From a virus (Duplodnaviria; Caudoviricetes), in IMG/VR virus record IMGVR_UViG_3300021437_000019, positions 1-62,504 of that record: a stretch of 62,504 bases of DNA; one strand, given 5' to 3'. Of this stretch, positions 26,701 through 42,873 are shown piece after piece. Numbering within the stretch: position 1 is the stretch's first letter; each line of letters opens with the position of its first letter. The translations under genes were made by a program, and so were the position numbers. The notes under the pieces were generated by a model. It was not told where the DNA came from. It worked only from the letters and a program-made list of their open reading frames with translations, and did no database searches.

Positions 26701-27380
26701 TTCGGACCTTTGAAGCCCAAGTCCACGTCAAAATTTAACGGACTCGGCGTTGTCACCGGGCTGGTGAGCGGGGTGTTTGTCCCGCACGGACCACTGGCAG
26801 TTGTCAACAGGCCGCCAGTAGATGCTTGGACGCAATTCCCAGCAGTGAGAGTCGAACCCGTGATCGCGGGGCTTGTAACCCCTCCGCTTAATGTGAGTGG
26901 TCCGGGAATGGGGCTGTTCCCCCCATCCTTTCGGATATAGGTGTTGTCTCCTGTCGGCGCAGGAACGGTCGGAACCGTGCTGTTCGGGGTTGCGGTATTC
27001 AAATTGAACAGGCTGCCATTGATCGTGTACGGTTGGCATCGGAACTGCTGGCCCCAATAGAAAATGCAGACTTGATACCACGTGCCACCGGGAAGCGAGG
27101 CACCACCGATCGTGATCGTGTCGTTCCCCTGGACCGTGCCGGAAATGTTCCCGCTGGCGTCGGGCTTGAAGTCCTTGTATGGGACAGCAATGACATTCGT
27201 CGAGGTCACCCGCGGGATGTTGCCGCCGAAGCCGGTGAGCGTGAATCGGACGTAAGTGTTTGAAGCCGTCACGTTCGCAACTCCGGCATCTTTTAGGTTC
27301 CCGCTGACGGTCACTTGAGCACGCAGCCCGAGTGGGGCCAATAGACACACCAGCGCGAGTAGAAGAAAACACCTCTTCAT
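23751..27380 (-). CDS. Tail fibre / tailspike-like protein with signal peptide
   Basis: MKRCFLLLALVCLLAPLGLRA|Q; Thr/Gly-rich; DIRRYGA and beta-helix-like region; TQTLTNKTLTSP. Confidence 0.8.
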   Translation of the reverse strand: MKRCFLLLALVCLLAPLGLRAQVTVSGNLKDAGVANVTASNTYVRFTLTGFGGNIPRVTSTNVIAVPYKDFKPDASGNISGTVQGNDTITIGGASLPGGTWYQVCIFYWGQQFRCQPYTINGSLFNLNTATPNSTVPTVPAPTGDNTYIRKDGGNSPIPGPLTLSGGVTSPAITGSTLTAGNCVQASTGGLLTTASGPCGTNTPLTSPVTTPSPLNFDVDLGFKGPNPNVDIRRYGARSLLSNANIPAVPGITASTTSGLATVTVSTATCAQQTSSVCFLNGDGVVVFGAGAAHTMTTPGAPTVTPSRAAALTGTGFTVAAPAGGTTTYNYQLVAQNKAGGLTAASAVGTTAIGSASLGPQQVAITSYSRSGTTVTVTTTAAHGLSVGSMVYQEGSSDTTNFGGWFQVVTVADTTHYTYSQPLDTASGAPTGAGVTGGNAHWFNCNHLTWTSVAGAIKYYIYGRTGGALTLLGVSSPDNGSTALSWDDFGSPMMDGFLAPYFVPTTPPVAATNNSLSTTIVSGAGTTTLTLANTAGATLAAATILFDNAPTILAAHNAARLTTFGTLYIPVASTAFVVNSYLTLGGFIGVNVAGSLLLNDTVEPGSNERWFGNLTPQQAGAPSFAWEAQNAITVGRANPGIYQPFTSATSPSFHNVGFTTNQTNAYSLMFLEGDFNVLDNVNFFGGTTNADQTGVGLTLRGSNTNTAFPNKLTNITFVSPQVTPLGATATPFFLCSFCGETLLDNISMSGRSIAYTPSSSNADFHLKGGRIQGGIMPLFTAIPSIAGTIGGFYSFQNYELDTMAHAMYANLPVAGSGSNASALFVNTGAPSSALPYITGSPAGAAIFTSTGGPVGQNTNVVNLSTGFFSNNSVQVNGTLGSIGYQMSTPAAPTAVVSAGGSVPVGTWFYQLTALDANGNESNLSSNVTVTTTTGNQTVTITPPAAPTGSVTYKAYRHNPGGGQGAVNAGPNAWGTNMVDTFGFTAGAPPAALALASGLSQSNINASAIVLSGGFKNTISGTFTANRTLTVPDATDTLALLAATQTLTNKTLTSPTLTTPVLSGTISGPATFSGSLVMSNASNSLQGVLNLGTTSASFGGSSPAFIGGIPTISSGFGTAPSLPVTNDSISFTINVGTGGTATSGVIGFPTAASSGWNVFCEDVTTFSTTVFRTRQTASTTTTATIGNFNSSAVAAPWAASDILSCIAVGR

Positions 27381-27465: not shown

Positions 27466-27747
27466 ATGGCACTTACCAAACGGCTTGTCCACCTGCTAAT
27501 AATTTTGACCTGCTACTTTTACGTTCTTCCCGCGGGGTTTGCTTCACTACTTCTCTGGCTGCAGGCCGTCAACGTTGGCCACCAAGAAAGACTCTTCATC
27601 GTCCAAAATCTCCGCATGGCAGCGATTCTTTTACTTGTTGGCTGGCTAGCCTGGACTCTCTATGGCGTTGCGGTCATCGCCGCGCCTGGCGGTCGCCGCG
27701 GGATTGCGGCACTCCGCACCTTCTTCAGTCGTTCCGCTAAAATCTGA
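27466..27747 (+). CDS. Membrane protein antisense to the virion operon
   Basis: Two long hydrophobic segments; fills the gap between giant and fibre genes. Confidence 0.5.
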   Translation: MALTKRLVHLLIILTCYFYVLPAGFASLLLWLQAVNVGHQERLFIVQNLRMAAILLLVGWLAWTLYGVAVIAAPGGRRGIAALRTFFSRSAKI

Positions 27748-30700
27748 TCGCCGATCTGTGCTCTGGCATCCCGCTCGGCTTGGTGAATGGCGTCCTCTGA
27801 CGCCTGAATCTTGTCTTCGTCGCTCATCTGCTTGTATTCTGGTGCATTAAACGTCTGTCGCAGGTAAGATTGCAGGTACGCCCCGCGCAGTTTTTGATAG
27901 CGATCTTGCTCATCTATGGACAATGCCACCTTGTAACCTTCCACCACTAAATGTTTTCCGGCGAAGCCAACATTCTTCAGCCCTAGCTTGTTCAGGCGAT
28001 CAAGTTCTGCGTCAATGGCGCTTTTTGGTTCGTCTTTTGAAAACCCTCCGGGGAACAGGGCCGCGAAACCGCTTGAACCTTCCTTCGTGGAAGGGCGCCC
28101 AAGAGTATCGAGTTTCGGTGCAACCGTTTTGCTCAACACCGGGAGGCCTGCCGCGATTCGTTCATACATCGTTTGCGGATTACGCACCGTAGGATCAAGT
28201 GCATCCCCGAGCGTACGCAGTGCGGACTCCATGGGAACAAACCCGCCGAGCCAACTAGAAACAAGGCGCCCGGAAAAACGTTCGGGATCCTGCATTGCAT
28301 CAAGGCCGCCCTTGAGTCCCCGCAAGAAGGATTCATCGGCGAGCGCCCGCCCCATCGCACCGCCAAATGCTAGAATCTGGTCAGTGGCGGGCATATCATT
28401 TTTCTTTTCGTTTCGGTCATGCCATGCAGCTACCGCCGCCGCCGTCAACGCAAATGGGCCGGCCGCCTTGTACGATACCCACCGGTTTCCAATTTTTATC
28501 GAGTACGGTTGTTTTCCTGAACGGTAGAACTCATCACGTCCAGCGGGATCATTCGGTGCCGCCCCTGTGAGCATTTTCTTGGCAGCAAAGTACGCGAACA
28601 GGCCCACGATGGCAGTACCGATCAGTGCGCGGCTGATGGTCTTTGTCGCTTCCGGGGATTTCGCGTGTTCGAAGTCGTTCAAACGTGCAAAGCCAAAGGG
28701 TGAATATCGGAGGGAGTGCTTCGTCAGATTGTAAGGAATCTGGACAAAGGGGATCACGAACCGCAACGGGTGTAGTCCTCCAATGAGAGGAATTCCCTTT
28801 GGGAGCGCCACTTTGTCGCGCATACTCATCAGGATGCGCGAAAGAACATCCGGGCGTTCCGTGAATGTTTGAAATTCACCGGCCTTCATCGCCGCGTCAA
28901 TCATGTCTTCGGTCGGATGCTGGATCAACTCAGCCGCACGGTTCTTCAACCCTTCGCCCTTCAATCCTTCACTGGCCGCTTGTCTTACTGCTTGGGCGTG
29001 CATCTCTCCTTGAAAGGCGAGCACCTGAAAGAACTTCGTCGCGGCGGAAAGAGCGCGCCCAGGCACGTTGAGCGGGTTCTTGATACCTCCCGGGAATTCG
29101 TACCTGCGCGGCAACTCAAAGGTGAGTGGATCGCCGGTGTCAAACCCGTGCATGATGATGTACGAGGCCTTGCGAATGCCTTCTGGCAGTGCGGATAGAT
29201 AGGATAGCGGCGCAACCAGCGCCTCACGGAGAGTCGTCTCGCTCTTGCGGCCCTGAATTGCCGCCATGATCTTATCCACAGGGACATCAACAAAACGTCG
29301 CGCCGTTTCAACGATCCCGAGCGAAACATCCCCCAACACTTTTTTTATTGGCGTGCGCGGACTTGAAAGCACGTTCGCAATCCAGTAGGCTTCAATCTTC
29401 TGTGCCGTTGTCCAATGCTTCTGCGAACGCAGGAAGTTGTTCAGTGCCACGGAATCATCTTCTGGAATCTCAGCCAACCGCCGCGCGGCGTCTTCGCTCA
29501 ATTCCTTCCCGCCAAGGGCCTCGAGCACGCGCTCATGTGCCGTCTGGTCTTTGCCTTCGAGGGCTTTCGCTACCATCCGTTGCTGTGACAGCGCCCGACC
29601 TGCTTCTGCGACGGCACCGGAAACCGCTTTCTGGATACCATCATGACGCAAGAGAGCTTCCTGGAATGCCAGAACGTTATCAACGTTCCCATTGGTCCTA
29701 ACCTTCGCGGCCGCCTCGCGGACCTTCTGCGCACTGGCGATCAGCATGGATCGCGCCGCCTGCAACTCTTCGGCATTCAGGGCCGTCCCAGCCTTCATGC
29801 TTTTGAGGTCTTTTTCAGTGAACATCCCCTCTTCGACAAGCTTCTTCGCCATGTCACGCGTCTCGTTGAATGGGATACTCCCGCGGCGTTGCTCATTGAA
29901 CTCCGGAGCATTCTCTTTAGCCGCCCTGCGAATCTCGTTGAGTACATCCTCGGGCGCGTTCAGCTTGTCAAGGCGGATGTTGCCCGCGTGTTCCACCGGG
30001 CGCTTGTCAGGCGCGGTTCGGGGAACGCCAGACGATTCAACCCTTGCACCTACTGGAATAGGTTCTCCCGACGCAGGTACGCGTTTGCCGCGAAGTGCCC
30101 TGAATGCCCGATAAATCAGGTGCCCGAGTTCGATAAGTGGATTGAAGCCGAAACCGGCTTCGGGATTCTCCGGGTTGACGATGCGCCGGGGGATTTCGGA
30201 AAGCCCCTCCCCCTCTCCTGGTACGACATGGGAAGGCGCAATCTCTTTGAAATTATCGTCAAACTCCTGCCCCTCGCGGGCGCCGGCCATGGTCTTATCT
30301 TCTTTGTTCACGGCGAGGGCTTCGTTCAACTCCTTCTGCTTGGCAAGCAGTTTGTTGAGTTGCGCCTGCTTGTTAAATGGTTTTTCGAGTTCCGCCTTGC
30401 GCGCTTCCAGGTCGCGCCGCAAGGCTTTAATATCCTCTTCCCTGTTCGCGGCGTAGGTTTCCAGGTTCCCGATGTTCCGCTCTGCGCTCTGGATCGTGCC
30501 AATCGGACTTTCATGATTCACCGTGAATCCGTGCGAGGATTTCCCGTACAGGTAGGGGTTTCCACTTCCATCGGCCTCAATGTCGAATCCCTGGAAGGTT
30601 CCAACCTTCATCCGGCCACTGCCGCGGTTAGCCTCGACGGCAGCATTCAGTGCGGCACCGGCATCCTTCCGGTCGGTGTAGGTTTTCTTCCCAACCGTCA

Positions 30701-33700
30701 TCTGGAATTCTTCGCGCTTGTTTGCATCGCGCGTTTTTATGTCTTGCAGGATGGCGTCCCGTGACGCTTCAGTGCCAGAAATCCGCTCCGGGATCTGCGC
30801 GAGCCGAATCCGGTTCGTGATCGCCGACTGTTCGTGAATCTGTTTCAACTTCTGTAGGCGGTCCACATCGGCATCCGTTTGGACCTTTTCGAGCACGCGC
30901 TTGTCGCCGGTGGCAATCGCGGCCGCCTCGGCATAACTCAGCGTCGCACCGTCCACGTCTTCGAGTTCGCGCTGATCATAGCCGTGCTGCATCATCTCTT
31001 TGATAAAAGACGCCTTGCGCGCGATCGTGCTCCACATATAGGCGTCAAACGTGCCCTGAGTCACGTAGCGATAGATTTGCACGGTTGGGTTGGTATTTCC
31101 TTGCCGGATGATGCGGCCTTCCCGCTGTTCGATGTCTGACGGGCGCCACGGAGCATCTACGTGGTGAAGGGCCAAAAGGCGCTCCTGAATGTTCGTTCCA
31201 ACCCCCATCTTATCGCTCGAACCAATAATGACGGCCTTCTCGCCGGAGTTCACGGCATCGAATAGTGCCTGCTTGGCGGCGTCGCTTTTCGCGTCGTGGA
31301 TGAACGCAACCTGGTCGGCCGGCACGCCCATGCCAACCAGTTTGTTTTTCAGGTCCGCGTAGGCGTTGAACTGGCCGCGTTTCTTCCCGGCATCGCTCGG
31401 GGTCATCAAATCGAGCATGACGGCTTGGGCTCGCTTCGTGCTCCGCGTTTCATGGTAGATGTCGGCAACTTTCTTCGCCGCCGCGGCAATCTTGCTCTCG
31501 CCGTCGTCGTTTGCGCCCGGGACCATCGAGCGGTAGTCTAGCGCGACCTTCCGCCCCTCGCTCGTGATCTTGAGCATATTATCTTCGGTGGGATCGACTT
31601 CTTTCCTGCGGATGGCCTTGGCGCGCTCGCCGAGTGTCTGGATGTAGTCAAGTACCCGCTGGCTGGCGGGAACCTCGATTACCTTCGCCTTCCCGCCCTC
31701 GACGTCCGGCACCTTGACGATGCCCTCCAAGTCCTCCGGGTGAATCACATCGGCGGTCTGCCGGAACATGCGCTTGAGTTCCGGCACGTTCATAAACTTG
31801 GCGAAGCGGGTGCTCACGCGAAACTTTGTCGGATCCTCCGGCGAAACTTCCATGTTCTGTACGGTATTCCCGAAGGCGGCTGCCCAGGAATCGAAGTGCG
31901 ACAGGTTCCCGGCCTCAAGGCGCCCTTCATCGAGATACCGCATCATCGTGTAAATCTCGGCCATGGTGTTGCTGATCGGCGTGCCGGTTGCAAACGCCAC
32001 ATTCGCACCATTGTTCAGGTCGGAAATGTACTTCGTTTTCAAATACATATCGAACGCGCGCTGCGCGTCTGACTTCGGGATGCCATTGATATTCCCCATC
32101 TTCGTCGAGAAGAAGAGGTTCTTATACATATGCGCTTCGTCAACGTAAAGCGCGTCCACGCCGGTATCCTCAAAATTAATGGTGTTGTCTTTGCGTTCCC
32201 TGTTGGCCGCACGCTCCATTCGGACCTTGATGCGCTCTTTGGCCTTCTCCAACTCCTTCACCGTGCGCCGGTTACTCTGCCCGCGCTCGTCTTTCAGTTC
32301 TCGAATGTGATCTTCGAGCATGTCGAGTTGCTTCTGTGCGTAGCGCTGCAAGGTCTCGATGCTGACGGGAAGTAACCCAAAACTCGCGTGTGGAACAATT
32401 ACCGCATCCCAATCGCCAGTGGCAATGCGGCTCATAATCGTCTTGCGATTCTTTGCTTCAAAGTCCTCTTTTGAGGCCGCAAGAATGCGCGCCTGTGGGT
32501 AGAGTCGCAGGAAGTCCGCGCCCCATTGCTCGACCAGGTGGTTCGGAACGACGATCATGGGCTTCTTCGCCAGACCGAGGCGCCTCTTTTCCATGGCCGA
32601 GCCGATGATCGTGTACGTCTTGCCGGCACCGACAACGTGTGCCAGAAGGGTGTTGCCGCCCACAACGCTGCGCCAGATGGCATTCATCTGGTGCGGCCGC
32701 ATGGTGATGCCAGCAGATTTTCCGGGGAGTGTCAGGTGGGAGCCATCATAGTTTCGGTCAACGATGTTGTTCCGATTCTCGTTGTACCACTTCGTTAGTC
32801 GTTCGGCCCGGTCGGGGTCTTTGAACATCCACTTCGAGAACTCTTCCTCGATCTGTTCAAGTTTCTCGCGCGCGGCGAGGGTTTCTTTCTCATTGACGCT
32901 GCGCTTCCCGTCGGCAGCCTCATCATAAACCGTTGGGCGCTTGAGGTTTAACGCACCCTCGATGATCTCCAATGGGCGCATCCGCGCCGTGCCCCACTTC
33001 GTCTGTGCGGCCTCATTGTACCGGGCTTGCCCGTTTTCTAATTTCCAGATCGCTTCGCTCGCAATATGTCGGACGGTCGTGCGGTTGCCGTACCGCTGAT
33101 GACCCAAAATCGCTTCGTCGATGAAGTTCGCGATGTCTTCTTCGGGAATCCACGGCGTACCGAGTCGCACGCTGATCTCGCCGGGTTCTAGGTCTCGCGG
33201 CTGAACCTGCTTCAATGCCTCGACATTTTGCGTGAAGTCTTTGTCCAACTTCGCCGCTTCTTCCGCATCGCGCAGTTTCGCGCGCACGTCGCCAGAGAGG
33301 TATTCATCCTTCGTTTCCCAGTGTCCCTGCGGTGCCTGAAAAGCCAATCCCGCCGCGCGAAGTTCTGTCCTAATCTCGTCTTCTGGCCGCCCGGAAATCT
33401 TCGACATATAATCGAAGTCAATCTTCCCTTTCTCCGCGAGGGATGCCGGGAGCGCGTCCGCGACGTTGTCAACGCTCGTTACTTCCTTCCGCGGCGCGAT
33501 GGTCTGTTTGAAGAACACATCGGCCTTGCTAGCCGTGCGCTCTTTCGCGTTCCACTTCTCAAGCGCCAGAAGTAGCGGTGCGTCTGGATCTTCTGCGACG
33601 ATCCGGTAATTCTTTGGCTGGTTGAGGTAGCCGTGTTTCTTGACAAAAGCATCGTAGGCGCGGTTCAGGCGGCCGCGGATCGCCGTCAAGTCTTTCCCTG

Positions 33701-36700
33701 GCCTTCCATTCCCTTCGGCCTGGAATAGTTCGCGCGTGACATCGCGGATGCCAAGCATTTGTTTCAATGGCTCAACGTTCGCCTTTGGAAATTCCGCCCG
33801 ATGGACCATCTGCCCATCGCGGTTTTGGAAAACCCTGCCATCTTGGACCTTGTACCCCCACGGCTTCGTGTCACCCCAATCGGGGATGCTTTCGACGGTC
33901 GCGGCCCTGGTCACGGACGCCGGTGCTTCGTGCTCGCCCATGACTTGTTCGGGCAGCTTCTCGATCGCGCCCTTGAGCAATCCCGGCAGAGGCTCTTTTC
34001 CGGCCTTCAACTCATAGTTCTGCCCATGCCCATACATCGTCCCTTCGAGGGTATGTTCTCCGAGCGCCATCGACGGATGGTCGTGGAAATACTCATTTAC
34101 TTGGGCTTCGCCGCCAGGAAGTTCCATTTCTTTGGTGGCGACGAAGTTCTGGCCGCCGGGCTTTTCGCCCGTGCCGCGCTTGCGGAAGAACAGCATATCT
34201 GTCGTGACTTCGGTTCCAGCGTTCTTTTGGAACGCGCCACCGGGCAGGCGAATCGCGCCAATCAGGTCTGCGTGGTCAAGGAAGGCTTGCCGTGCGCGGT
34301 TGTCGTAAGCATCGAGGGAGTGGTGCGAAGTAATGATCGCCGCGAGGCCGCCCGGGCGCACCTTGTCAAGCATCCGAGCGATGAAATAGTTGTGAATGCT
34401 CTCGGTGAGATACTTCTTGCCTTTATAGGTAGGATCGTTGACAGGGTAGTTGCCGAATGGGACGTTCGAGATTGCAAGGTCGTAGAAGTCGTTCAGGCCC
34501 TTGAGTTCTTGGAAACGCTGAATGCGTACATCGGCATTCTGATAAAGTTGGCGAAGAATCTTGCCGGAAGTCTGGTCAAGTTCAATCGCGGTTTTCTTCG
34601 ATCCCGCGAAGATGTCGTCGGGCATTAAGCCGAGGAAATGGCCGATACCAGCCGAGGGTTCCAAGATGCGACCAGCCCTGAACCCAAGGCGGCTGACTGC
34701 ATCCCACATGGCGGTAACAACTTCAGGGGAAGTGTAGTGCGCGTTCGTGGTGGAACGTACTGCGGAGTCGTATTCTTCTTCTGTGAGGAGTTTCTTCAGT
34801 TCGGCGCGTTCATTGCGCCACTTGTCGTGGTTCTTGTTGAGGAGGTTCCCTGTCCACCCCCAACCACTGTAACGGACTAATTTGGCTTGTTCGTCGGGTG
34901 TGGCGTTGCGCCCGGAGGCTTCAAGTTCCTTGAGAACGCGGATGGCGGCGACGTTGAGTCGGTACTTTTCTTGAATGGAGCCTTCGCCAATGTGGTCGGT
35001 TTCGGTGATCCGGTAGTCGTTACCAGACTGGCCGGATCTGGACTGGACGGCTGGCTCTCCCCCAGGTGCGGCTGGTCCTCCTCGCTCGGCAACAGGTAAT
35101 GGTTCAACTTCGCCTCCCTCTGTGCCTCGAACGGGTGTATTCCGTTCTGGATGCTGCGCGCCGACTCCTCGACCGCTCGGTTCGCCGCGTTCTGCGCCCA
35201 ATCGTCCAGCTTGCCGGCTTGCGACAACTGGCTCGCCATTTTCGGCCGGTACTTTTCGAGGTGCTTCTTCGCCTCGACCGCCCATGGACTCAATTGCTTG
35301 GACATTGGCAGGCTCCTTCTCTGGCTGGATTGTGCGCTCCGGTTCTTCGTTTGTCAAGTGACTCAAGGGCACGAATTCGATACGGCCAATAGGCACCACG
35401 CCAGAACGGCCGGGGATACGCATGACGGCTTGCTGATCGACATCGACAATGGCCTCGCCGCGGCCCGCGTCCACTGACTGAATCTTCCCGGTGAGTTTCT
35501 GCCCCTTGGAATTGGTATAGCTTACGCGGTCGCCCTTTCTAAACTTTACACTTTCAGACGCGGCACCTTCGGCGGTCCGGGCAACCTCGGCAGGCTTGGT
35601 GGATGTATTTGCGGGGGCCGTGGCAACTTCGGCAACCCGATTTTCGGCAGGCTTGGCTTTGACGGCTTCGGACTTTTCGGCTGCTTCGGCAGTAGGCTTT
35701 TCGCCCTTTGCAAGAACTGGTTTACCTGCTGCGGACTCGCGTACTGGTTCTGCATTGACAGCCTCCATCTTGTCCATCAGCGCATGGCCCTCTGTCAGTT
35801 CGGCCACTGGAATCTGATCACCGGCCACCGCGCGCGCCTCAATGGATGCAACTTTTTGCTCAAGTTCGTGTTGGTCCATCGCCCGAAGAATTTCATCGGA
35901 TGAGGTCGATTCCGTTCCAATCTCCCCAAGATCATGTACACCAACGGCGGGGTGCACTTCCTCTGCGGCCTTGGACGCCGGCTGCCCCTTGGTCGGGAGT
36001 GCCTTCGCGCCTTCGTTAAGCGTGGTTTCGGTGCCATTGGCCTGCCTGGACACAATCCGATCATACGGGCCAGCCTTGGCGTCCACCGCTTCCGGGCCGA
36101 TGAGCGGCGTTTCCTTGCCCGTGCGCGTGTCGATCCTCACCCGCTGGACACCACTCGCTTTTTCATTGCGTGTGCGGCTGATTGCTTCAAGGCTTGCACC
36201 AGACTCCGCGCTGGCATTCGGAAGTCCCTGTACTGGCCGTGTCTCCGCAGACAACGGCGTTTCCGTGGCGGAAGTTTCCGGCTTGGGGATAGAGGCTTGC
36301 CGTCCCGCGACGACGTTCTCGGGCGTCTCTATGCCGATTTGCGCGCCGGGGAACTGGTCGGCAAGTTTCTGTGCTTGCGCCTGAACCGCTTCGGGCTTGC
36401 TGGTATCGACTACTGAGGCTTTCTGTTCTGTGCCCCTCGCGTCGCGGGCGACTACTGCGGCGGGTTGGCCTTGCGCGGCTGCCTCTTTCGTTTGGACATT
36501 GCCAAGGAGTTCACCGTACGTGCCATTCTTGACCGCCTTTCGAATGTCCGCTGGCGTCACACTGTCGTCGTGGTAGTACGTTCCCGCGCCTGGCTTGTCG
36601 CCCTTTACAATGGTCACATTGGCATCTTCCGGGGGTGCGGGGATCGTCTGCGTGCCCTTCGGGAAGTACACAACCTTGTTCGTACCCTTCGCCAGCGCAT

Positions 36701-37982
36701 CCACCTGGGCGTTGAGAGTTTCCGGCTTTTCGGGAACGGTCGCTTCACCGGCACCTACGGATGCGGGTGCACCGGGAAGTTGTGCCGGTTGAGGCGGTTG
36801 CTGTGGACGCTCAGGAACTTGCGGCGTGCGCTTCGCGGATACTTCCTGCCCTTCTGTCGCTTTCCGCGCCGCCTCAAATGTTTCTGCCTTGACCTGCTTC
36901 TCCGCGCCACCACCACGAACTGCGCCAACCGCTGCGGCACCACCAAGAGCGGCTTGCCCCAATCCTTCCAGAACCTTCGAAGCGTCTTTATCCTTCACGC
37001 CTTCGACGATGTTTCCGCCGCCCTGTGCGGCGAAGCCGCCCGCAGCGGCTTGTCCGGCAACCTTTCCAGCCGTCGCGGCTTTCTGCGCCTTTGCTGCCGC
37101 GATGATGGTCTCCTTCATCTTCGTTTCCACGTCAGCGAGCTCGGCACCCGTAGCTCCCGCTGCGCGCATCGCTTCATACTCTTGCGCTATCTTCGCCGCT
37201 CTGCCGCCAAACTGCCCGGCCTTCGAAAGCGCAACTGTCTCTCCAAGGCCGAGCGCGGAAACACCGAGCCCAATAGGAGACAAAAACATATCGTTAAGAG
37301 TTTTGACGGTATCGGCCGTCGCACCCGCAAAGAAGGCTTCGCCGCGTGTCTTGGGAATGTCGGGACGGTTCAGAAATTCGCTTGCAAGGTCGGTCAGTTC
37401 ACCGACATTCGAAGTGCGAACTCCAAGAGGGAATGGGTTGGTCGGTCCGGGTTCCGTAAAAGCGGGAAGTGGCATCTTGCGTGAGCCGGATTGGAGGTCA
37501 GTGGAGAATTGATCCTGGGCACGCTGCGCCTCTTCAATCCCCTCGGCGGTAGTCGGGCCCCCACGCTGCGCGCTGGCTCCAATCTCGGCGGGGTTCAATT
37601 TCCTTGTACGCTCGGTTTCAGCGGCAAGAGCTGCGCGCTCGGCCGCTTGCTGCTCCTCGACGGTTTGCGGAGTCTGAGAAGGATCGTAGTAGCGATTCGT
37701 GAACGGATTTAGCGGAATTTTTGTGGCATCAACAAAAGGAGGATTCTGCGGAGGGGGCAGCTTCGTCATCGGCTGTCCCATCTTCGCTGCGCGCGTGCTC
37801 AGTGGGGTTGTCTGTGTTTCGGGGGATTGTCCTGTGGCAAGTTCGTTCAGAGTTGGGGTGCGAAGGTTTGTTCCCGGCTTCGGCCCGCGGATCGCTGAAA
37901 GGATTGGGTCGTCTTCTTCCTCGTCAGCAACCGCAACTCCACCGCCGCCCTGAATCGCTTTCAGGATAGGGTCGTCTGCCAT
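27660..37982 (-). CDS. Giant DarB-like virion protein: N6-adenine methyltransferase + SNF2-like helicase + polyvalent-protein C-terminus
   Basis: ILEPSAGIGHF, ISNVPF, AHVVGAGKT, VDEAH, ATGTP, QREGRIIRQGN; position after the ejection genes. Confidence 0.9.
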   Translation of the reverse strand: MADDPILKAIQGGGGVAVADEEEDDPILSAIRGPKPGTNLRTPTLNELATGQSPETQTTPLSTRAAKMGQPMTKLPPPQNPPFVDATKIPLNPFTNRYYDPSQTPQTVEEQQAAERAALAAETERTRKLNPAEIGASAQRGGPTTAEGIEEAQRAQDQFSTDLQSGSRKMPLPAFTEPGPTNPFPLGVRTSNVGELTDLASEFLNRPDIPKTRGEAFFAGATADTVKTLNDMFLSPIGLGVSALGLGETVALSKAGQFGGRAAKIAQEYEAMRAAGATGAELADVETKMKETIIAAAKAQKAATAGKVAGQAAAGGFAAQGGGNIVEGVKDKDASKVLEGLGQAALGGAAAVGAVRGGGAEKQVKAETFEAARKATEGQEVSAKRTPQVPERPQQPPQPAQLPGAPASVGAGEATVPEKPETLNAQVDALAKGTNKVVYFPKGTQTIPAPPEDANVTIVKGDKPGAGTYYHDDSVTPADIRKAVKNGTYGELLGNVQTKEAAAQGQPAAVVARDARGTEQKASVVDTSKPEAVQAQAQKLADQFPGAQIGIETPENVVAGRQASIPKPETSATETPLSAETRPVQGLPNASAESGASLEAISRTRNEKASGVQRVRIDTRTGKETPLIGPEAVDAKAGPYDRIVSRQANGTETTLNEGAKALPTKGQPASKAAEEVHPAVGVHDLGEIGTESTSSDEILRAMDQHELEQKVASIEARAVAGDQIPVAELTEGHALMDKMEAVNAEPVRESAAGKPVLAKGEKPTAEAAEKSEAVKAKPAENRVAEVATAPANTSTKPAEVARTAEGAASESVKFRKGDRVSYTNSKGQKLTGKIQSVDAGRGEAIVDVDQQAVMRIPGRSGVVPIGRIEFVPLSHLTNEEPERTIQPEKEPANVQAIESMGGRGEEAPRKVPAENGEPVVASRQAGRLGAERGEPSGRGVGAQHPERNTPVRGTEGGEVEPLPVAERGGPAAPGGEPAVQSRSGQSGNDYRITETDHIGEGSIQEKYRLNVAAIRVLKELEASGRNATPDEQAKLVRYSGWGWTGNLLNKNHDKWRNERAELKKLLTEEEYDSAVRSTTNAHYTSPEVVTAMWDAVSRLGFRAGRILEPSAGIGHFLGLMPDDIFAGSKKTAIELDQTSGKILRQLYQNADVRIQRFQELKGLNDFYDLAISNVPFGNYPVNDPTYKGKKYLTESIHNYFIARMLDKVRPGGLAAIITSHHSLDAYDNRARQAFLDHADLIGAIRLPGGAFQKNAGTEVTTDMLFFRKRGTGEKPGGQNFVATKEMELPGGEAQVNEYFHDHPSMALGEHTLEGTMYGHGQNYELKAGKEPLPGLLKGAIEKLPEQVMGEHEAPASVTRAATVESIPDWGDTKPWGYKVQDGRVFQNRDGQMVHRAEFPKANVEPLKQMLGIRDVTRELFQAEGNGRPGKDLTAIRGRLNRAYDAFVKKHGYLNQPKNYRIVAEDPDAPLLLALEKWNAKERTASKADVFFKQTIAPRKEVTSVDNVADALPASLAEKGKIDFDYMSKISGRPEDEIRTELRAAGLAFQAPQGHWETKDEYLSGDVRAKLRDAEEAAKLDKDFTQNVEALKQVQPRDLEPGEISVRLGTPWIPEEDIANFIDEAILGHQRYGNRTTVRHIASEAIWKLENGQARYNEAAQTKWGTARMRPLEIIEGALNLKRPTVYDEAADGKRSVNEKETLAAREKLEQIEEEFSKWMFKDPDRAERLTKWYNENRNNIVDRNYDGSHLTLPGKSAGITMRPHQMNAIWRSVVGGNTLLAHVVGAGKTYTIIGSAMEKRRLGLAKKPMIVVPNHLVEQWGADFLRLYPQARILAASKEDFEAKNRKTIMSRIATGDWDAVIVPHASFGLLPVSIETLQRYAQKQLDMLEDHIRELKDERGQSNRRTVKELEKAKERIKVRMERAANRERKDNTINFEDTGVDALYVDEAHMYKNLFFSTKMGNINGIPKSDAQRAFDMYLKTKYISDLNNGANVAFATGTPISNTMAEIYTMMRYLDEGRLEAGNLSHFDSWAAAFGNTVQNMEVSPEDPTKFRVSTRFAKFMNVPELKRMFRQTADVIHPEDLEGIVKVPDVEGGKAKVIEVPASQRVLDYIQTLGERAKAIRRKEVDPTEDNMLKITSEGRKVALDYRSMVPGANDDGESKIAAAAKKVADIYHETRSTKRAQAVMLDLMTPSDAGKKRGQFNAYADLKNKLVGMGVPADQVAFIHDAKSDAAKQALFDAVNSGEKAVIIGSSDKMGVGTNIQERLLALHHVDAPWRPSDIEQREGRIIRQGNTNPTVQIYRYVTQGTFDAYMWSTIARKASFIKEMMQHGYDQRELEDVDGATLSYAEAAAIATGDKRVLEKVQTDADVDRLQKLKQIHEQSAITNRIRLAQIPERISGTEASRDAILQDIKTRDANKREEFQMTVGKKTYTDRKDAGAALNAAVEANRGSGRMKVGTFQGFDIEADGSGNPYLYGKSSHGFTVNHESPIGTIQSAERNIGNLETYAANREEDIKALRRDLEARKAELEKPFNKQAQLNKLLAKQKELNEALAVNKEDKTMAGAREGQEFDDNFKEIAPSHVVPGEGEGLSEIPRRIVNPENPEAGFGFNPLIELGHLIYRAFRALRGKRVPASGEPIPVGARVESSGVPRTAPDKRPVEHAGNIRLDKLNAPEDVLNEIRRAAKENAPEFNEQRRGSIPFNETRDMAKKLVEEGMFTEKDLKSMKAGTALNAEELQAARSMLIASAQKVREAAAKVRTNGNVDNVLAFQEALLRHDGIQKAVSGAVAEAGRALSQQRMVAKALEGKDQTAHERVLEALGGKELSEDAARRLAEIPEDDSVALNNFLRSQKHWTTAQKIEAYWIANVLSSPRTPIKKVLGDVSLGIVETARRFVDVPVDKIMAAIQGRKSETTLREALVAPLSYLSALPEGIRKASYIIMHGFDTGDPLTFELPRRYEFPGGIKNPLNVPGRALSAATKFFQVLAFQGEMHAQAVRQAASEGLKGEGLKNRAAELIQHPTEDMIDAAMKAGEFQTFTERPDVLSRILMSMRDKVALPKGIPLIGGLHPLRFVIPFVQIPYNLTKHSLRYSPFGFARLNDFEHAKSPEATKTISRALIGTAIVGLFAYFAAKKMLTGAAPNDPAGRDEFYRSGKQPYSIKIGNRWVSYKAAGPFALTAAAVAAWHDRNEKKNDMPATDQILAFGGAMGRALADESFLRGLKGGLDAMQDPERFSGRLVSSWLGGFVPMESALRTLGDALDPTVRNPQTMYERIAAGLPVLSKTVAPKLDTLGRPSTKEGSSGFAALFPGGFSKDEPKSAIDAELDRLNKLGLKNVGFAGKHLVVEGYKVALSIDEQDRYQKLRGAYLQSYLRQTFNAPEYKQMSDEDKIQASEDAIHQAERDARAQIGDQILAERLKKVRSAAIPRRPPGAAMTATP
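34877..35305 (-). CDS. Nested out-of-frame gene, TnpV-like helical protein
   Basis: AAGGAG 7 nt before ATG; WAVEAKKHLEKYRPKMASQLSQAGKLDDW..A.RE..YLLP. Confidence 0.7.
   Translation of the reverse strand: MSKQLSPWAVEAKKHLEKYRPKMASQLSQAGKLDDWAQNAANRAVEESARSIQNGIHPFEAQREAKLNHYLLPSEEDQPHLGESQPSSPDPASLVTTTGSPKPTTLAKAPFKKSTDSTSPPSAFSRNLKPPGATPHPTNKPN
35538..35550. promoter_or_regulatory. Palindrome copy (1 mismatch) inside the giant gene
   Basis: TCTAAACTTTACA followed by CTT; about 230 bp upstream of the nested gene. Confidence 0.5.
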
Positions 37983-37985
37983 GTC

Positions 37986-39443
37986 CTACTGTTCTTCGTC
38001 GTCTGTAACGGAACTTGCTGTTGGACTAAGACCTGCGGCTTTCGCGTCCTCCGGAGAGAGTGACAACCGTTTCTTGCCTTGCTTCGAACGGTCGCGGATA
38101 TGTTGGCGAATCTTCGGCAACATCGCCTGTAGGCGTTTCTGTGCATCCGGATCGCCCACCTGAAGGCCGTTCAGGAATTGAATGGCCTTGTCGGGATCGT
38201 TGCCGTTACGCTTTAGGGCTTCCGCCGCGTAGGTTTCAACCTGTGAATTTACCTCGTTCGTCTTATCTGTTCGATCTGCCGCGCGGTCGGGTACTGGCTG
38301 GCGCGTGTTGTCAGTCGAAGCAATTTTCTTTCCAAATGTCGGGCTGTTCGGATTCGTGTCGAGAATGTTATCCGTCTCGATACCGGCACCATTCCGACTG
38401 GCGCGCACCACCGCCTTTGGTGTGTTGTATCCCGGGGATCGGAGTGGAATGCTCGCAGCCACACCAGAAGGCGACTGGCTCGCCGTTCCGCTTCCCGGCG
38501 TTAACCCTCCCGGAGAACCCGGTATCTCGTCAAATGGCCCTGTCCGCGAAGTCACTCCCGTAATAGGATTTTTCATTCTCTGAAAATTCGGCCTGCTTGG
38601 ATTGTCGATGCCAAATGGCGGTCTGGTTGGCAGTGGAACCGCACCGGATGGAGAAATGCTCGACGGTAGTGGTACGGCACCAGAAGACCCGGAACCGCCG
38701 GGAAGCGGAACGGCCCCAGATGTTGTGGCGCCCGGTAATGTCAACAACCTTGTGGGTGCCTGGCCGTGCTTATCGTAAGTGACGATGCCCTGATCAGTAT
38801 TCGTCGCCGCGTAGTCGGCGTTGCTCTCTGGCTGGATTCCCTCGATCGGCTCGTACCGCAACGTGTGCGGGTTCAGAGTCATGTAAATTTCGTTGCCCTG
38901 CGGATCGTGCCCCTTGATCGCGTTTGGCACACGGCTAATCGGCGGCAACTGCATCTCGTGCAGCGTGCGGGCGTATTCGAGCAAGTTCTTGAATTGATCG
39001 TTCACTTGCTGACGCTGGAGCATCATCTTCTGCATCTGGAATGCACGCTGACGGTCATAGAAATCTTGCGCCGCGCCAAAACCGCCGCCGGGATGCCCCT
39101 TGCCGCCAGCGAGTCCAATCAAGCCGCCTTGCAAAGCTGGGCCAAGTACCCGCGCCAGCATCCCCCACTTCGTCAGTTTGCCGTTATCGTTGTCCGGATG
39201 TCCCGCTCCGGGTAACCCAAGATTTTGCATGAAGTCGCCAAATCCCGTAGTGCGCGTAACTGGAAGATTTACCGATGGGCGCGCGCCACCGGTCGCGTTC
39301 AGCGGATCAACACCTGGCGGAAGGGGGCTTGGTGCGCTGACGCCGTTGGCGTCCGTACTTGCTGGCGCTCCGAAATCAGACTGGTCCGTGCTCCCGCTGG
39401 CCTGTGTCAACGGCATTTGATCTGTCTGATGCGTGTGGCACAT
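37986..39443 (-). CDS. Putative ejection / internal virion protein
   Basis: AGGAG SD, MCHTHQ start, Gly/Pro/Gln-rich, SGAVPLP three times. Confidence 0.65.
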   Translation of the reverse strand: MCHTHQTDQMPLTQASGSTDQSDFGAPASTDANGVSAPSPLPPGVDPLNATGGARPSVNLPVTRTTGFGDFMQNLGLPGAGHPDNDNGKLTKWGMLARVLGPALQGGLIGLAGGKGHPGGGFGAAQDFYDRQRAFQMQKMMLQRQQVNDQFKNLLEYARTLHEMQLPPISRVPNAIKGHDPQGNEIYMTLNPHTLRYEPIEGIQPESNADYAATNTDQGIVTYDKHGQAPTRLLTLPGATTSGAVPLPGGSGSSGAVPLPSSISPSGAVPLPTRPPFGIDNPSRPNFQRMKNPITGVTSRTGPFDEIPGSPGGLTPGSGTASQSPSGVAASIPLRSPGYNTPKAVVRASRNGAGIETDNILDTNPNSPTFGKKIASTDNTRQPVPDRAADRTDKTNEVNSQVETYAAEALKRNGNDPDKAIQFLNGLQVGDPDAQKRLQAMLPKIRQHIRDRSKQGKKRLSLSPEDAKAAGLSPTASSVTDDEEQ

Positions 39444-39450
39444 GAAGCTC

Positions 39451-39972
39451 CTATACGGAGAAAAGTCCCGGATTCTGCACAAGTCCCTGTGCCAATCCAC
39501 CAACAAAGTTCCCGAACCCGCCGCTGTTCACCGGTGGCGCACTGAGCACTGAGCCCGCCGCGCCACTGCCTGCGGTAGCGTAACCCAAAGGATTCAGCAT
39601 GTTCGCGGCGTTTTCCTTTGCCGCCTCGTTTGCGCCAAGCGCGCCAACGATGTTGCTGTCAAAGCCCCGCGCCAAGTTTGCGTTGAAGTCTCCGACGACT
39701 CCTTCCTTAAATCCCGATGGAAGCGTATCGCCAAAACCGGACAAGCGGCGCAATAACGACGCCCGCTCCGGGGCCGCCGCGCGCGCCAGCGTGCCGTTGT
39801 TGAAATCAATCAGGTCGTTGAAATACGGCAGGCCGTTCTTCAACCGGTCCATCAAAAATGGGGTTTGCGCGTTATTCCGCTGCGTGTATCCGGCCGTCAG
39901 TGCCCGGTTCAAGTCGATCTGTGACTGCGCCGATTGCTTTTTTTCATCCGCAAGTGCATCGCCCCCACACAT
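39451..39972 (-). CDS. Putative ejection (DNA transfer) protein
   Basis: GGAGG SD, MCGGD start, Ala/Gly-rich helices. Confidence 0.65.
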   Translation of the reverse strand: MCGGDALADEKKQSAQSQIDLNRALTAGYTQRNNAQTPFLMDRLKNGLPYFNDLIDFNNGTLARAAAPERASLLRRLSGFGDTLPSGFKEGVVGDFNANLARGFDSNIVGALGANEAAKENAANMLNPLGYATAGSGAAGSVLSAPPVNSGGFGNFVGGLAQGLVQNPGLFSV

Positions 39973-40430: not shown

Positions 40431-40927
40431 AACAGGATAATCCGGCCGCTTCCACCGCCTGTCGGTTCGGACGGGTATCCGGGCGGCGGCGGCGCCGCCG
40501 ATCCGCCGGTCCCGCCGGCCGTGCCAGCCACAACGTATTGATCGGTATTCGCCTTACCAATGATTTGTACCTTGCTGCTTTCCGCACCGCGCGTGCTGAC
40601 TGACGAAACGTATAAAGCGACCGAAGTGTTCGCTGGAACTTTGACCCTTGTCTGCCGCGCGGATGGATCCGTGATGTTCTGCACCAGGTTCGTTTCATTG
40701 TCACGGTACACACGCCAGCCAGCAATGTCGCTGCTACGAATCTGCGGCGCGTTCCACGTGATGAGTAGTTCCAGGCTTCCACCCTGCGCGATTAAATTGC
40801 GTGGCGGGAGCGGTCGTTTCTTTGCACCTGAAATCTTCAATAGCGTGGCGGAATTTTCTTGGAGCAGTCTTTGAAGTATCGGCATGGCCTGCTGATACGT
40901 TCCAGGCAATTGAAATTCGTTGTTCAT
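40427..40927 (-). CDS. Fibronectin type III-like virion protein
   Basis: PLPPRNL..ITWNAP..IAGWRVYR..VSSV..GAES. Confidence 0.65.
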   Translation of the reverse strand: MNNEFQLPGTYQQAMPILQRLLQENSATLLKISGAKKRPLPPRNLIAQGGSLELLITWNAPQIRSSDIAGWRVYRDNETNLVQNITDPSARQTRVKVPANTSVALYVSSVSTRGAESSKVQIIGKANTDQYVVAGTAGGTGGSAAPPPPGYPSEPTGGGSGRIILL

Positions 40928-42873
40928 CGCGCTTCCTGCCTGGCCGCACCAAGTTTCGGCATCACCATGTTGATTCGTCCGTAGGTCGCCACCGGGATTT
41001 CTTCGTTAGTCACCGTCAATGTCCCATCTGCCGGATGTGAGGTAAGCTGGACACGCCCGAATATCCAGCGTGCCTCGGTCCCAATCTTTGCGGCATATCG
41101 GTTATCGCTGGCGCTGATCTGGTCCGTATCAGCCACCGTCCAATCCGCGAGCGCAAGGTCGGTTTCCGCCGCGTAGGACCACTGTGCGAGGCCATCGCCC
41201 TGCCACTCGATCTCACTCACTAGCACGTTGTTGTTTCCAACGTTCAGCAGCGTGATGTAATCGCCCGTGTAGGTGGAACCGTTGTCCGAGTCACCATCTT
41301 CGAGTTGGTACACCTTCCCGTTGTCGGCGGCGCCCCACAGGCGCTCTCTCCCGTTCACGTCGCGCACATTCTGCCGCGGCGTGTAGCCCGTGCCAGCCAG
41401 CGTCTTCAGGGTTATGCCTGAATACGTTGCATCGTATGCCTGCCCGTGCGGACTGAGTTCGTCGCGCAGCAGGTAGTCGTGGACAACGACAATTGGATTG
41501 CCATTCGTGTCTTTACCGAACACGTACACGCAATCAATTTCCTTGATCGGGTCGCGCAGATAGGCCAGTTCCACCGTCGAAACGAACTGGTCGGCAATCT
41601 GATTGAGCAGCATTCGCTCATACTCGTTGCTGATCGGCGTCGGCCCGTAATAACCCGAATTCAGCAGCGTGTTGTAACCCTGGCCAAAGCTCATCAACTG
41701 CTTGTCGGTTGTGAACCACACGGGCCCGTACGGCGTTTCGATCCACGCGCGCTGCCCGGAACAGCCACCAACCCACGGTCCGCGCCACGGGTTTGCGCCC
41801 TGATCGCGCAATGCCTGCGACCAGATCGCCAGATAATTCTTACTGTGGAACCAGCCTTCCAGCCGATAGGTGTGCAGGCACGTCGGCACTTCCCCGGTCG
41901 GAAAAGGTTCGATGTTGTTCGCCGGCCACGCTTCCGGTGCCGAACCAACAAATTCTCCCACATTGAAAGCTGTGTCGTCTTCCGAGTAGTAGATGTTTAC
42001 ATCGCCATCTCGCGCGGCGAAGACCCGATTGCCAACCCTGGTAAACCTGTTCAGGCCGCTGATTGGCAAACCATTGCGGATCGGAAGTTCCTGGTTCGCG
42101 GCAATCGTCGGCGCGGTGAATGTCGCCACGGTTGCGGCATTTCCAACGATGATGCGGTTTCCGTTCGCATCCACCAACCAGTAAGGCACCTGACCGCCAT
42201 CGTTCGTGCGCCCGATGCCCTTCACCCACTCAGTATTTACACCCGCAAGGCTTGGCAGGCCGCTCACCACAAGCGAGTATCCGGCCGTCCCAACCGTGAA
42301 GGTCGAGCCGATCTGGACGCAATTGCCGACAGCGCCGGTGACCTGGTTGTAATACACCATCCAGAGGCCAAAGCCGCCCAAGACGGTAATTGCCCACGTT
42401 CCCGTTACGCCGTTCGTAAGGTTGTTTGTGACACCAGAGGATTCCGTGCTGTTTGGTGCCCGGATGCCCACCGGCCGCAGTGTCGTGCCGTCGTAGCTGT
42501 CGAAGTCCGTACCGTTCCCGATGAAGATGCGATTCGCGGCCCGGAAGTGTCCCCACGGGTTCCCACTCGCTAGCGCCGCGATGGTCGTGACCGCGCCGCC
42601 GTTTATGGCAACGCGCTTCAAATTCGCACCTTGGCCGAAAAGTGCGTACTGCGTTCCACCGTACTGCTCGTAATAGGCAATGGAATGAATCGCCGTCGTG
42701 TTATCGACGGCGCTCATCGCCGGCGCCGTGTAACCCCAGCGCAACTTCAGCCGGCCGGATTGATGCACCCGGAAATTCCGACACCGCTGGCTGCGCTTCG
42801 GCGGGAAATTGAGCGGATTGCTGCGACTGTCTACCCCGCCAAACTCGAAGTCATCGATCTTCTTGAGTGGCAT
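40924..42873 (-). CDS. Podovirus tail nozzle / DNA stabilisation protein
   Basis: FGGVD..N..G.LK.R.G N-terminus, propeller-like IYYS motifs, position after the adaptor. Confidence 0.75.
   Translation of the reverse strand: MPLKKIDDFEFGGVDSRSNPLNFPPKRSQRCRNFRVHQSGRLKLRWGYTAPAMSAVDNTTAIHSIAYYEQYGGTQYALFGQGANLKRVAINGGAVTTIAALASGNPWGHFRAANRIFIGNGTDFDSYDGTTLRPVGIRAPNSTESSGVTNNLTNGVTGTWAITVLGGFGLWMVYYNQVTGAVGNCVQIGSTFTVGTAGYSLVVSGLPSLAGVNTEWVKGIGRTNDGGQVPYWLVDANGNRIIVGNAATVATFTAPTIAANQELPIRNGLPISGLNRFTRVGNRVFAARDGDVNIYYSEDDTAFNVGEFVGSAPEAWPANNIEPFPTGEVPTCLHTYRLEGWFHSKNYLAIWSQALRDQGANPWRGPWVGGCSGQRAWIETPYGPVWFTTDKQLMSFGQGYNTLLNSGYYGPTPISNEYERMLLNQIADQFVSTVELAYLRDPIKEIDCVYVFGKDTNGNPIVVVHDYLLRDELSPHGQAYDATYSGITLKTLAGTGYTPRQNVRDVNGRERLWGAADNGKVYQLEDGDSDNGSTYTGDYITLLNVGNNNVLVSEIEWQGDGLAQWSYAAETDLALADWTVADTDQISASDNRYAAKIGTEARWIFGRVQLTSHPADGTLTVTNEEIPVATYGRINMVMPKLGAARQEAR

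Follow-up and report, generated by a model that had tools for sequence, protein, structure and literature searches.

A TnpV-related gene probably nested in the +1 frame of a giant DarB-like virion gene

The record IMGVR_UViG_3300021437_000019 is a complete virus record of 62,504 bp; it is referred to here as the window, and all coordinates are positions in its full length. It contains a giant gene for a DarB-like polyvalent virion protein. Inside this gene, on the same strand and in a different frame, an open reading frame (ORF) of 142 amino acids was located at 34877-35305 (minus strand), hereafter the hidden ORF. It is likely that the hidden ORF is a real nested +1-frame gene, whose product consists of a TnpV-related domain of approximately 80 residues with four helices and a variable tail. 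Its status as a gene is based on homologues, substitutions by codon position, start signals and the predicted fold. The features concerned are the following.

34877-35305, minus strand: hidden ORF, 142 amino acids plus stop, in the +1 frame of the giant gene (ORF list and coordinate arithmetic)
35060-35305, minus strand: conserved part of the hidden ORF, residues 1-82, predicted four-helix domain of the TnpV superfamily (relatives, alignment A1 and AlphaFold2)
34877-35059, minus strand: tail of the hidden ORF, residues 83-142, rich in P/S/T and overlapping the LPD36 start (ORF lengths and substitution pattern)
35028-35306, minus strand: giant-frame reading of the overlap, a low-complexity linker that stays open yet lacks conservation at the protein level, giant residues 893-985 (composition, fold control and variability)
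27660-37982, minus strand: giant host gene, DarB-like polyvalent virion protein (ORF translation, PHROG and Pfam)
33993-35027, minus strand: LPD36-like helical domain and N6-adenine methylase, giant residues ~986-1330 (PHROG, Pfam and alignment A4)
31098-32708, minus strand: SNF2/SF2 helicase core, giant residues 1759-2295 (Pfam)
35313-35319, minus strand: Shine-Dalgarno sequence GAAGGAG, with a 7-nt spacer to the hidden ATG (sequence)
35354-35356, minus strand: TGA stop in the hidden frame, 16 codons before the ATG (sequence)
35329-35357, minus strand: putative sigma-70-like promoter inside the giant gene, TTGACA-17-CACAAT, 10/12 (consensus match)

The first-pass annotation of this DNA had pointed to a same-strand ORF of 142 amino acids in another frame of the giant gene, starting with ATG, and the ORF was present at this place. 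The A of its ATG (35305-35303) is the second base of giant codon 893, which puts the ORF in the +1 frame, and the whole ORF lies within the other gene, the layout of an embedded gene. The conserved part closes with an acidic motif (consensus LP.E.D.P.L). The tail varies in length, whole ORFs having 76-142 amino acids among the relatives, and is probably unconstrained beyond residue ~100. A further hidden-frame motif past the acidic motif, at residues ~83-100 (window ~35005-35059), is common to the relatives P0006, P0007 and P0108; it reads LPDPASL(I/V)T in P0006 and P0007 and SPDPASLVTT in the window. In this subgroup, the hidden-frame constraint may reach the LPD36 start. A palindrome copy described earlier at ~230 bp upstream was not recovered: searches for inverted repeats in 34300-36300 (seed 9, length at least 12, arms at most 60 apart) and in 35350-35750 (seed 6, length at least 10) gave none. 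A contig from a second freshwater metagenome run spans 33487-35921 with 0 differences from the window. DNA contigs from four freshwater runs were identical over the overlap of the two frames and so offered no polymorphism for a within-population selection test. None of the sequencing runs listed as containing this DNA was an RNA run.

Substitutions, start signals, homologues and fold

The substitution pattern indicates that selection in the overlap acts on the hidden frame, with the giant frame only kept free of stops. Giant codon position 1 corresponds to hidden position 3, and giant position 3 to hidden position 2. In a giant-frame codon alignment of nine loci, giant position 1 was the most variable and position 3 the least variable in the overlap (0.51/0.45/0.42, 0.60/0.52/0.43 and 0.55/0.42/0.33 at positions 1/2/3 in three blocks of 30 columns). 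From the LPD36 start on, giant position 3 was the most variable (0.62-0.71 in eight successive blocks). The phase of variability flipped from the hidden to the giant frame exactly at the start of the methylase module. A hidden-frame alignment agreed with this, with 0.495/0.414/0.560 at hidden positions 1/2/3, and amino acid identity within it was 35% in the hidden frame versus 25% in the giant frame. A frame-specific comparison of substitutions had been suggested as a check on the gene; the changes followed the hidden frame, synonymous changes being more numerous there in 9/9 pairs of cultured phages, and conservation was not confined to the giant frame. Between LASTA and SopranoGao, the ratio of synonymous to non-synonymous changes was 6/0 in the hidden frame and 0/6 in the giant frame; between PBC5 and Atu_ph08 it was 26/31 and 7/50, respectively. 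The giant frame had 0 stops in 13/13 overlaps, compared with 3-10 stops in the third frame of each. After synonymous reshuffling of the hidden frame, the giant frame remained open with a frequency of 0-0.12 per locus (jointly ~1e-30).

The host frame had been described in the first-pass annotation as a low-complexity linker that ends just before the methylase module, and its composition bears this out. Over the overlap, the linker of the window consists of 75% G/P/E/R/S/A/T and 15% hydrophobic residues. The giant-frame reading was similar in 18/18 loci (65-86% G/P/E/R/S/A/T, 4-15% hydrophobic), and the hidden-frame reading of the same 18 loci had the composition of an ordinary protein. Directly after the linker follows the LPD36-like start of the methylase module, 'NDYRIT..IGEG..' in the giant translation of the window, with the consensus DY.I...D..G.GG across loci.

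The Shine-Dalgarno sequence noted earlier as AAGGAG at 7 nt before the ATG was found as GAAGGAG at 35319-35313. Matches of at least 4 nt to such a sequence, 3-12 nt from the start, were present at 19 of the 21 hidden-ORF starts, and matches of at least 5 nt at 15 of them. The background among 1334 other out-of-frame ATGs of the same loci was 22.6% and 6.2%, respectively; some of the 21 loci are close kin, so that the significance of this enrichment is inflated. In 19/21 loci the start was ATG or GTG with a Shine-Dalgarno sequence. Erwinia and Klebsiella phages share GAGGT, an 8-nt spacer and ATG, with a hidden-frame stop two codons before. The small protein would thus be translated separately, from GAAGGAG-N7-ATG on the mRNA of the giant.

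Putative extra transcription in the window phage might come from the sigma-70-like promoter inside the giant gene, whose -10 hexamer ends 23 nt before the hidden ATG. The search for promoter-like sites found one, with 0.3 expected in shuffles. At the same offset, locus L010 (~3940-3968) has a perfect TTGACA-17-TATAAT (12/12), and locus L005 (~2669-2697) has TTGACA-17-CAGGAT (9/12). The codon phase of the TTGACA differs in L005, a sign that selection may act on the DNA itself. In the 133,354 nt of the 21 loci there were only eight sites scoring at least 10/12. Most other loci, including most cultured carriers, had nothing comparable, and the internal promoter is therefore confined to some lineages at best.

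Residues 1-82 were searched with phmmer against 1.84 billion representative proteins, which yielded 102 proteins at E ≤ 1e-3 and 15 at E ≤ 1e-10, mostly of 65-200 amino acids. Alignment A1, built from 64 of the 102, has the consensus W..A..HW...RPKM..EL...G.L...AA...G..P..A.E.A...LP.E.D.P.L, with H15, R20, P21, L27, G31, L33, G55, A61 and P73 nearly invariant. The relatives mostly had 77-130 amino acids, and the hidden domain, with four predicted helices within 82 residues, is small and helical like TnpV. The Pfam family TnpV (PF14198) was matched by 41/64 of them at E ≤ 1 and by 18/64 at E ≤ 1e-3 (best E 2.1e-7); no other Pfam family recurred among the 64, with a single RecX_HTH1 match (E 0.00098). 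A profile of the 64 relatives added 60 proteins at E ≤ 1e-5, among them copies with 68-78% identity to that of the window. Five of these carry a precomputed PF14198 match and one is named 'TnpV protein' by UniRef; the remaining ones are unnamed or 'hypothetical', bar one labelled 'ribonuclease D'. In the protein atlas, the nearest clusters were small hypothetical proteins, and a TnpV-labelled cluster at rank 20 (score 0.83) serves as a lead only.

The window ORF itself had no Pfam or PHROG match, whether the 142-residue ORF or residues 1-82 were searched (PF14198 at E ≤ 1), and a six-frame family search of the whole record gave no TnpV match. Among the phage-embedded copies, 5/10 matched PF14198 (E 4.8e-5 to 0.015); none reached the Pfam TnpV cut-off of 27 bits, the best scoring 23.7 bits. 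The link to PF14198 holds transitively via the relatives, and a direct match of the window copy does not. The hidden ORF is therefore placed on a distant branch of the TnpV superfamily, outside the Pfam family by its curated rule. Of the TnpV identity suggested in the first-pass annotation, the distant homology stands, and direct membership of the window ORF does not. The relatives P0033, P0037, P0039, P0041 and P0109 have the TnpV-like domain joined in frame to proteins predicted to be secreted or located in the membrane. It is N-terminal in these fusions, but C-terminal in the 882-residue P0109, which has an internal Met directly before the domain; some of the fusions may therefore be gene-call artefacts.

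With A1 as input, AlphaFold2 modelled the 82 residues with a mean predicted local distance difference test score (pLDDT) of 90.3 and a predicted TM-score (pTM) of 0.73. Helices were predicted at residues 7-19, 21-30, 33-53 and 58-69, in line with the earlier expectation that the first ~75 residues are ordered and helical. The pLDDT drops to 70 and then to 53 in the last two blocks of the model. The giant-frame translation of the same DNA gave a pLDDT of 54.7, a pTM of 0.12 and no secondary structure, in a comparison in which its alignment had 12 rows versus 64 for the hidden frame. Both structure searches returned PG0816 (PDB 2apl) as the best solved match, which we take to be a member of DUF1896 (PF08989), a family found on conjugative elements of Bacteroidota. 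Foldseek gave a probability of 0.97, a TM-score of 0.55 and a root-mean-square deviation (rmsd) of 1.9 over 59 columns, with an E of only 0.71. VIA-align gave a Z of 7.0 over 70 residues, the next match having 5.0, and a Z of 7 is within the chance range for helical models. DUF1896 was weakly matched by 4/64 relatives (best E 0.043), and the sequence profile matched only designed helical repeats in the PDB. The structural likeness of the model to 2apl is suggestive only. In BFVD, the top match was Q8W6J4_2, a piece of a long viral protein (TM-score 0.81, rmsd 0.9, 27% identity), which is probably the case of phage PBC5 described below.

Some results weigh against the hidden ORF being a gene. 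Its length is within chance: when the amino acid sequence of the giant was held fixed and synonymous codons were shuffled, the +1 frame was open over the span in 7.7% of the reshuffles, and the longest off-frame open stretch of the giant, 158 codons, was reached in 61%. Length is thus no argument, and it is the comparison with other sequences that makes the case for a gene. No phage match was obtained for the second-longest off-frame ORF on the giant's strand (35795-36064). The window ORF lacks a direct family match, as described above, and the translation of every copy is predicted from sequence. Furthermore, a giant-frame motif (ALE.VP.E.V) overlies the best-conserved motif of the hidden frame (HW...RPKM). 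These points would be accounted for by a frame that happens to be open in a low-complexity linker rich in GC, its conservation being a shadow of selection on the giant frame. This explanation is already contradicted by the substitutions, which occur at third positions of the hidden frame and mostly change the amino acid in the giant frame, and by free-standing relatives without a surrounding giant. The enriched start signals also speak against it, as does the fact that a fold is predicted with confidence for the hidden frame only, and we find it barely credible.

Occurrence in other phages

Seven viral contigs (L007-L013) were fetched with the small protein alone. In 7/7 the small ORF lies inside an open frame of at least 1738 amino acids that corresponds to the hidden frame minus 1, and it directly precedes the LPD36-like start of the methylase module. 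The only phage that a tblastn search with the window ORF found was Vibrio phage VvAW1 (E 0.05), and plasmids gave no match. The annotated DarB-like gene of VvAW1 contains, in the +1 frame, an ATG ORF of 109 amino acids. The far more sensitive search with the relative P0076 found 20 phage records, representing 11 phages: Erwinia Pavtok, Stean and PEp14, Pseudomonas Itty13, Sinorhizobium PBC5, Ochrobactrum POI1126, Agrobacterium Atu_ph08, Vibrio VvAW1, and Klebsiella LASTA, SJM3 and SopranoGao. It also matched two plasmid records, one of which is a phage-like replicon of 59 kb. Where the giant was annotated as one coding sequence (CDS) on that strand, the match was +1 to it in 8/8 phages (VvAW1, Pavtok, PEp14, Stean, POI1126, Atu_ph08, LASTA and SopranoGao). 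SJM3 is outside these eight; its tblastn coordinates equal those of LASTA. The small ORF was annotated in 0/20 phage records, and only the giant gene or an opposite-strand CDS lay under the match in 20/20, as foreseen in the first-pass annotation for a gene that callers would miss. In Itty13 (NC_070969.1, 5602-8820), RefSeq has two 'hypothetical protein' CDSs on the opposite strand, and a DarB-like giant frame of at least 1072 amino acids is open across the entire 3.2-kb locus. The giant gene of Itty13 looks mis-annotated.

Loci found via the methylase domain (L002-L005, with L006 a duplicate of L002) gave a weaker picture. They have +1 ORFs of 92-114 amino acids at the same place. In hhalign comparisons with the family, the match was marginal for L003 only (E 4e-4, probability 35%), with E 0.023 for L004 and E 0.56 for L005; L002 was likened to L004 by eye only, outside the profile comparison. 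A +1 ORF is expected by chance in L002-L004 (P 0.55-0.92), so that universality of the hidden gene in these giants is unsupported.

The layout of two sequences also counts against a separately made protein, since PBC5 and protein P0027 (500 amino acids) have the domain in frame with an upstream part. In PBC5 (NC_003324.1, 24745-27948), the upstream CDS of 2180 amino acids enters the domain in frame and ends at its stop. Compared with its close relative Atu_ph08, PBC5 shows a frame change ~15 codons before the internal ATG, and the split could be real or a sequencing error in the 2001 record. Such layouts would be expected if the TnpV-like sequence were made only within a larger product by frameshifting, either as the C-terminal end of the upstream part (+1) or as the N-terminal domain of a shorter methylase-helicase isoform (-1). 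The step from the hidden to the giant frame is -1, the common direction of programmed frameshifts in phages, and the BFVD match Q8W6J4_2 has the fold inside a long viral protein. We consider frameshifting very improbable, as several features of the loci speak for separate translation. The TGA 16 codons before the ATG leaves little room for frameshift entry from the giant frame in the window, and most of the relatives' loci have a hidden-frame stop 2-30 codons before the start. A -1 slippery heptamer is not conserved, being present in 2/13 loci at different places. The start signals described above also argue against it, as do the very different distances past the domain at which the ORFs end. 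Among the 102 phmmer matches there was no giant with the domain in the methylase frame, and a search for longer proteins with the domain gave two (168 and 882 amino acids), neither of them a methylase.

In both Atu_ph08 and PBC5, the giant frame after the overlap holds another conserved domain, which begins GPFGPIL.GYEG.W.EAALELERRQ. Adjacency of the hidden ORF to the methylase is therefore not universal.

The host gene and the origin of the overlap

The ORF that holds the hidden ORF encodes 3440 amino acids (27660-37982, minus strand), according to the ORF list and the translation. Its product consists of a variable N-terminal part, the linker, LPD36 with an N6-adenine methylase, an SNF2/SF2 helicase, and a C-terminal part resembling an internal virion protein. 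The PHROG family phrog_10089 ('DarB-like antirestriction') matches residues 908-2571 (E = 0), methylase and helicase PHROGs match as well, and phrog_6651 ('internal virion protein') covers residues 3118-3316. In the methylase region, phrog_37568 covers residues 990-1322 and Pfam Eco57I matches weakly at 1154-1241; N..P.F and other motif columns are invariant in alignment A4. The LPD36 domain was named and described by Iyer et al. 2017 (PMC5512222). Pfam matches in the helicase core are SNF2-rel_dom (1775-1955), ResIII (1759-1954) and Helicase_C (2224-2295). Upstream, the same strand carries the gene for a major head protein (45893-47107), and the giant thus combines LPD36, an adenine methylase and an SF2/SNF2 helicase on one polypeptide within a structural module, as DarB-like polyvalent proteins do. 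The large ORFs flanking it on the minus strand (23751-27380, 37986-39506 and 40924-42873, of 1209, 506 and 649 amino acids) had no PHROG match at E ≤ 1e-5.

Across the loci, the 400 amino acids upstream of the hidden ORF were alike in 15/153 locus pairs, all within one group of six, and the region downstream was alike in 153/153. The hidden ORF therefore marks the 5' edge of a conserved cassette. Among 36 metagenome loci of relatives, six were embedded in long open frames and 23 had the minus-1 frame closed on both sides; in the remaining seven, it was closed on one side and the other side ran off the contig. Four bacterial metagenome-assembled genome (MAG) loci carry free-standing copies. In two of them, L014 (5001-5438) and L017/L039 (2386-2640), the small ORF is intact, but the minus-1 frame behind it retains little of the LPD36 start before it breaks. 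These loci look like decayed prophage giants that kept the small gene.

Taken with the free-standing relatives, the selection pattern suggests that the hidden frame is the older reading and the linker the overprint. The small gene would once have stood at the head of the methylase-helicase cassette, and a different frame of it would have been translated through when virion-protein domains from upstream joined the cassette. The giant would now read the same bases as a disordered G/R/E/P linker that joins its lineage-variable N-terminal part to the LPD36-methylase-SNF2 cassette. The first-pass annotation had proposed that the gene was retained when the enzyme was fused to a virion protein; this fits the anatomy of the loci and the free-standing relatives, with the direction of overprinting only inferred.

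A different origin would be a tnpV mobilisable element that inserted into the SNF2-methylase gene and then lost everything except the hidden ORF, with the giant frame resealed. Elements of this kind integrate specifically into snf2 in integrative and conjugative elements (ICEs) of Streptococcus suis (PMC9815147). Around the hidden ORF, repeat searches and the ORF map revealed no recombinase, repeats or other remains of an element. Its position at a domain boundary is common to very distant phages, which argues for one ancient event at the head of the cassette and not for site-specific insertion. We regard a relic as very improbable, and it would concern the origin only and leave the present-day gene unchanged.

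A broader and rather unlikely version of the read-through origin is that giant polyvalent phage proteins grow by 'read-through fusion' over a small gene, with the TnpV-like protein as an indispensable, separately translated cofactor of DarB-type enzymes. The older gene would then stay alive, invisible within an apparently disordered linker. Such a cofactor might, for example, serve as an adaptor in folding or packaging, or switch the enzyme on and off. If this were true, the TnpV-family proteins of transposons and ICEs would have a related and so far unrecognised role with SNF2-methylase enzymes.

Possible function and comparison with known systems

As the small protein would be made from the message of the giant, it may act with it, and we tentatively hypothesize a partnership with the methylase-helicase giant. 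It may serve the folding or packaging of the giant or the control of its methylase-helicase. The obligate partner (chaperone, inhibitor or activator) proposed in the first-pass annotation is likewise a hypothesis. A complex prediction for the small protein with the LPD36-methylase region (giant residues 980-1400) scored 0.00 against a mark of 0.32, which speaks neither for nor against binding.

Several observations count against such a role. The neighbours of free-standing relatives were mixed (radical SAM, ABC transporter and ribonucleotide reductase genes), with no consistent partner among them, and only two free-standing loci were near a restriction-modification methylase or helicase. L050 (5182-8731) and L027 (1845-4079, minus strand) are within 1-3 kb of a type I-like N6 methylase with its specificity subunit, or of a ResIII/SNF2-type helicase. 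The hidden ORF of Atu_ph08 and PBC5 is separated from the methylase by another domain, and two MAG loci keep the small ORF with the methylase frame behind it truncated. The link between TnpV and SNF2 genes noted in the first-pass annotation has another published explanation, the integration of tnpV-bearing mobilisable elements into snf2 in Streptococcus suis ICEs (PMC9815147).

The chief alternative is that the small protein is real and has a job unrelated to the giant, as a self-standing regulator, DNA-binding or anti-defence factor trapped in the linker. A promoter of its own might then drive its expression at a stage other than that of the late giant gene. The many free-standing relatives in bacterial contigs without an adjoining methylase-helicase are in keeping with this, as are the small ORFs retained before a truncated methylase in MAG loci, the sigma-70-like promoter directly upstream in the window, L010 and L005, and the fusion of the relatives P0033, P0037, P0039 and P0109 to membrane or secreted proteins. 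An Xis-like role has also been postulated for TnpV of Tn4451 (PMC3158075). On the other hand, the ORF always heads the methylase-helicase cassette in phages while the N-terminal parts change, most cultured carriers lack a promoter-like site, and by residue count the protein is near neutral and not basic. An unrelated job is thus conceivable, and we lean towards regarding it as unlikely. Since the hidden gene can be stopped without altering the giant protein, a role in DarB-type anti-restriction is directly testable.

On the nested-gene reading, a conserved gene missing from the annotation would be present in many uncultured phages and in at least 11 sequenced ones that infect Erwinia, Klebsiella, Pseudomonas, Vibrio, Agrobacterium, Sinorhizobium and Ochrobactrum; biocontrol or therapy is the reason why some of the sequenced phages are studied. 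It would be a clean natural example of dual coding, with an apparently older gene inside a linker and the switch of selection visible at a single boundary. It would also open a first way into the function of the TnpV family, so far only guessed from a postulated likeness to lambda Xis (PMC3158075). More generally, it warns that 'low-complexity linkers' of giant phage and plasmid proteins can conceal genes. No description of the hidden gene was found in the literature on TnpV, DarB and phage overlapping genes, DUF1896, PLxRFG or antirestriction overprinting, and the main text of the polyvalent-protein survey (PMC5512222) does not mention TnpV, overlapping or frameshift.

The protein DarB of phage P1 is likewise a methylase-helicase virion protein with a small companion, ulx, which RefSeq lists as 'Ulx-like anti-restriction'. 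In P1, however, ulx is a separate gene downstream of darB, and DarB starts with its methylase module, leaving no upstream linker in which a gene could hide. P1 Ulx was considered as a homologue of the hidden ORF and rejected (hhalign probability 0.3%). PG0816 of Porphyromonas gingivalis, the best structural match of the model, has 149 amino acids, and we know of no function for it. The ardD gene is a small anti-restriction gene inside tniA of Tn5053; it is antisense to its host gene, whereas the hidden ORF is on the same strand (PMC3533173). TnpV of Tn4451/Tn4453 (PF14198) resembles the hidden-ORF product as a small all-helical protein of mobile elements and sits beside a large serine recombinase on mobilisable transposons (PMC3158075). 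In contrast, the hidden ORF lies in a phage structural gene and not on a Tn4451-type element.

Embedded genes and the TnpV family are thus already known; new are the place of this gene, the depth of its conservation, the apparent direction of overprinting and the lack of annotation in every record. The closest layout is that of lambda Rz1 inside Rz, a small same-strand +1 gene with its own start signals, where both products come from one message. The hidden ORF is likewise on the same strand, +1 and wholly embedded, with its own predicted start signals. Rz and Rz1 are both short lysis proteins with a proven interaction; here, the host is a virion enzyme of 3440 amino acids, the overlap is confined to a disordered linker, and the partnership is a tentative proposal. 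A further difference from Rz/Rz1 is that the embedded reading of the hidden ORF appears to be the older one.

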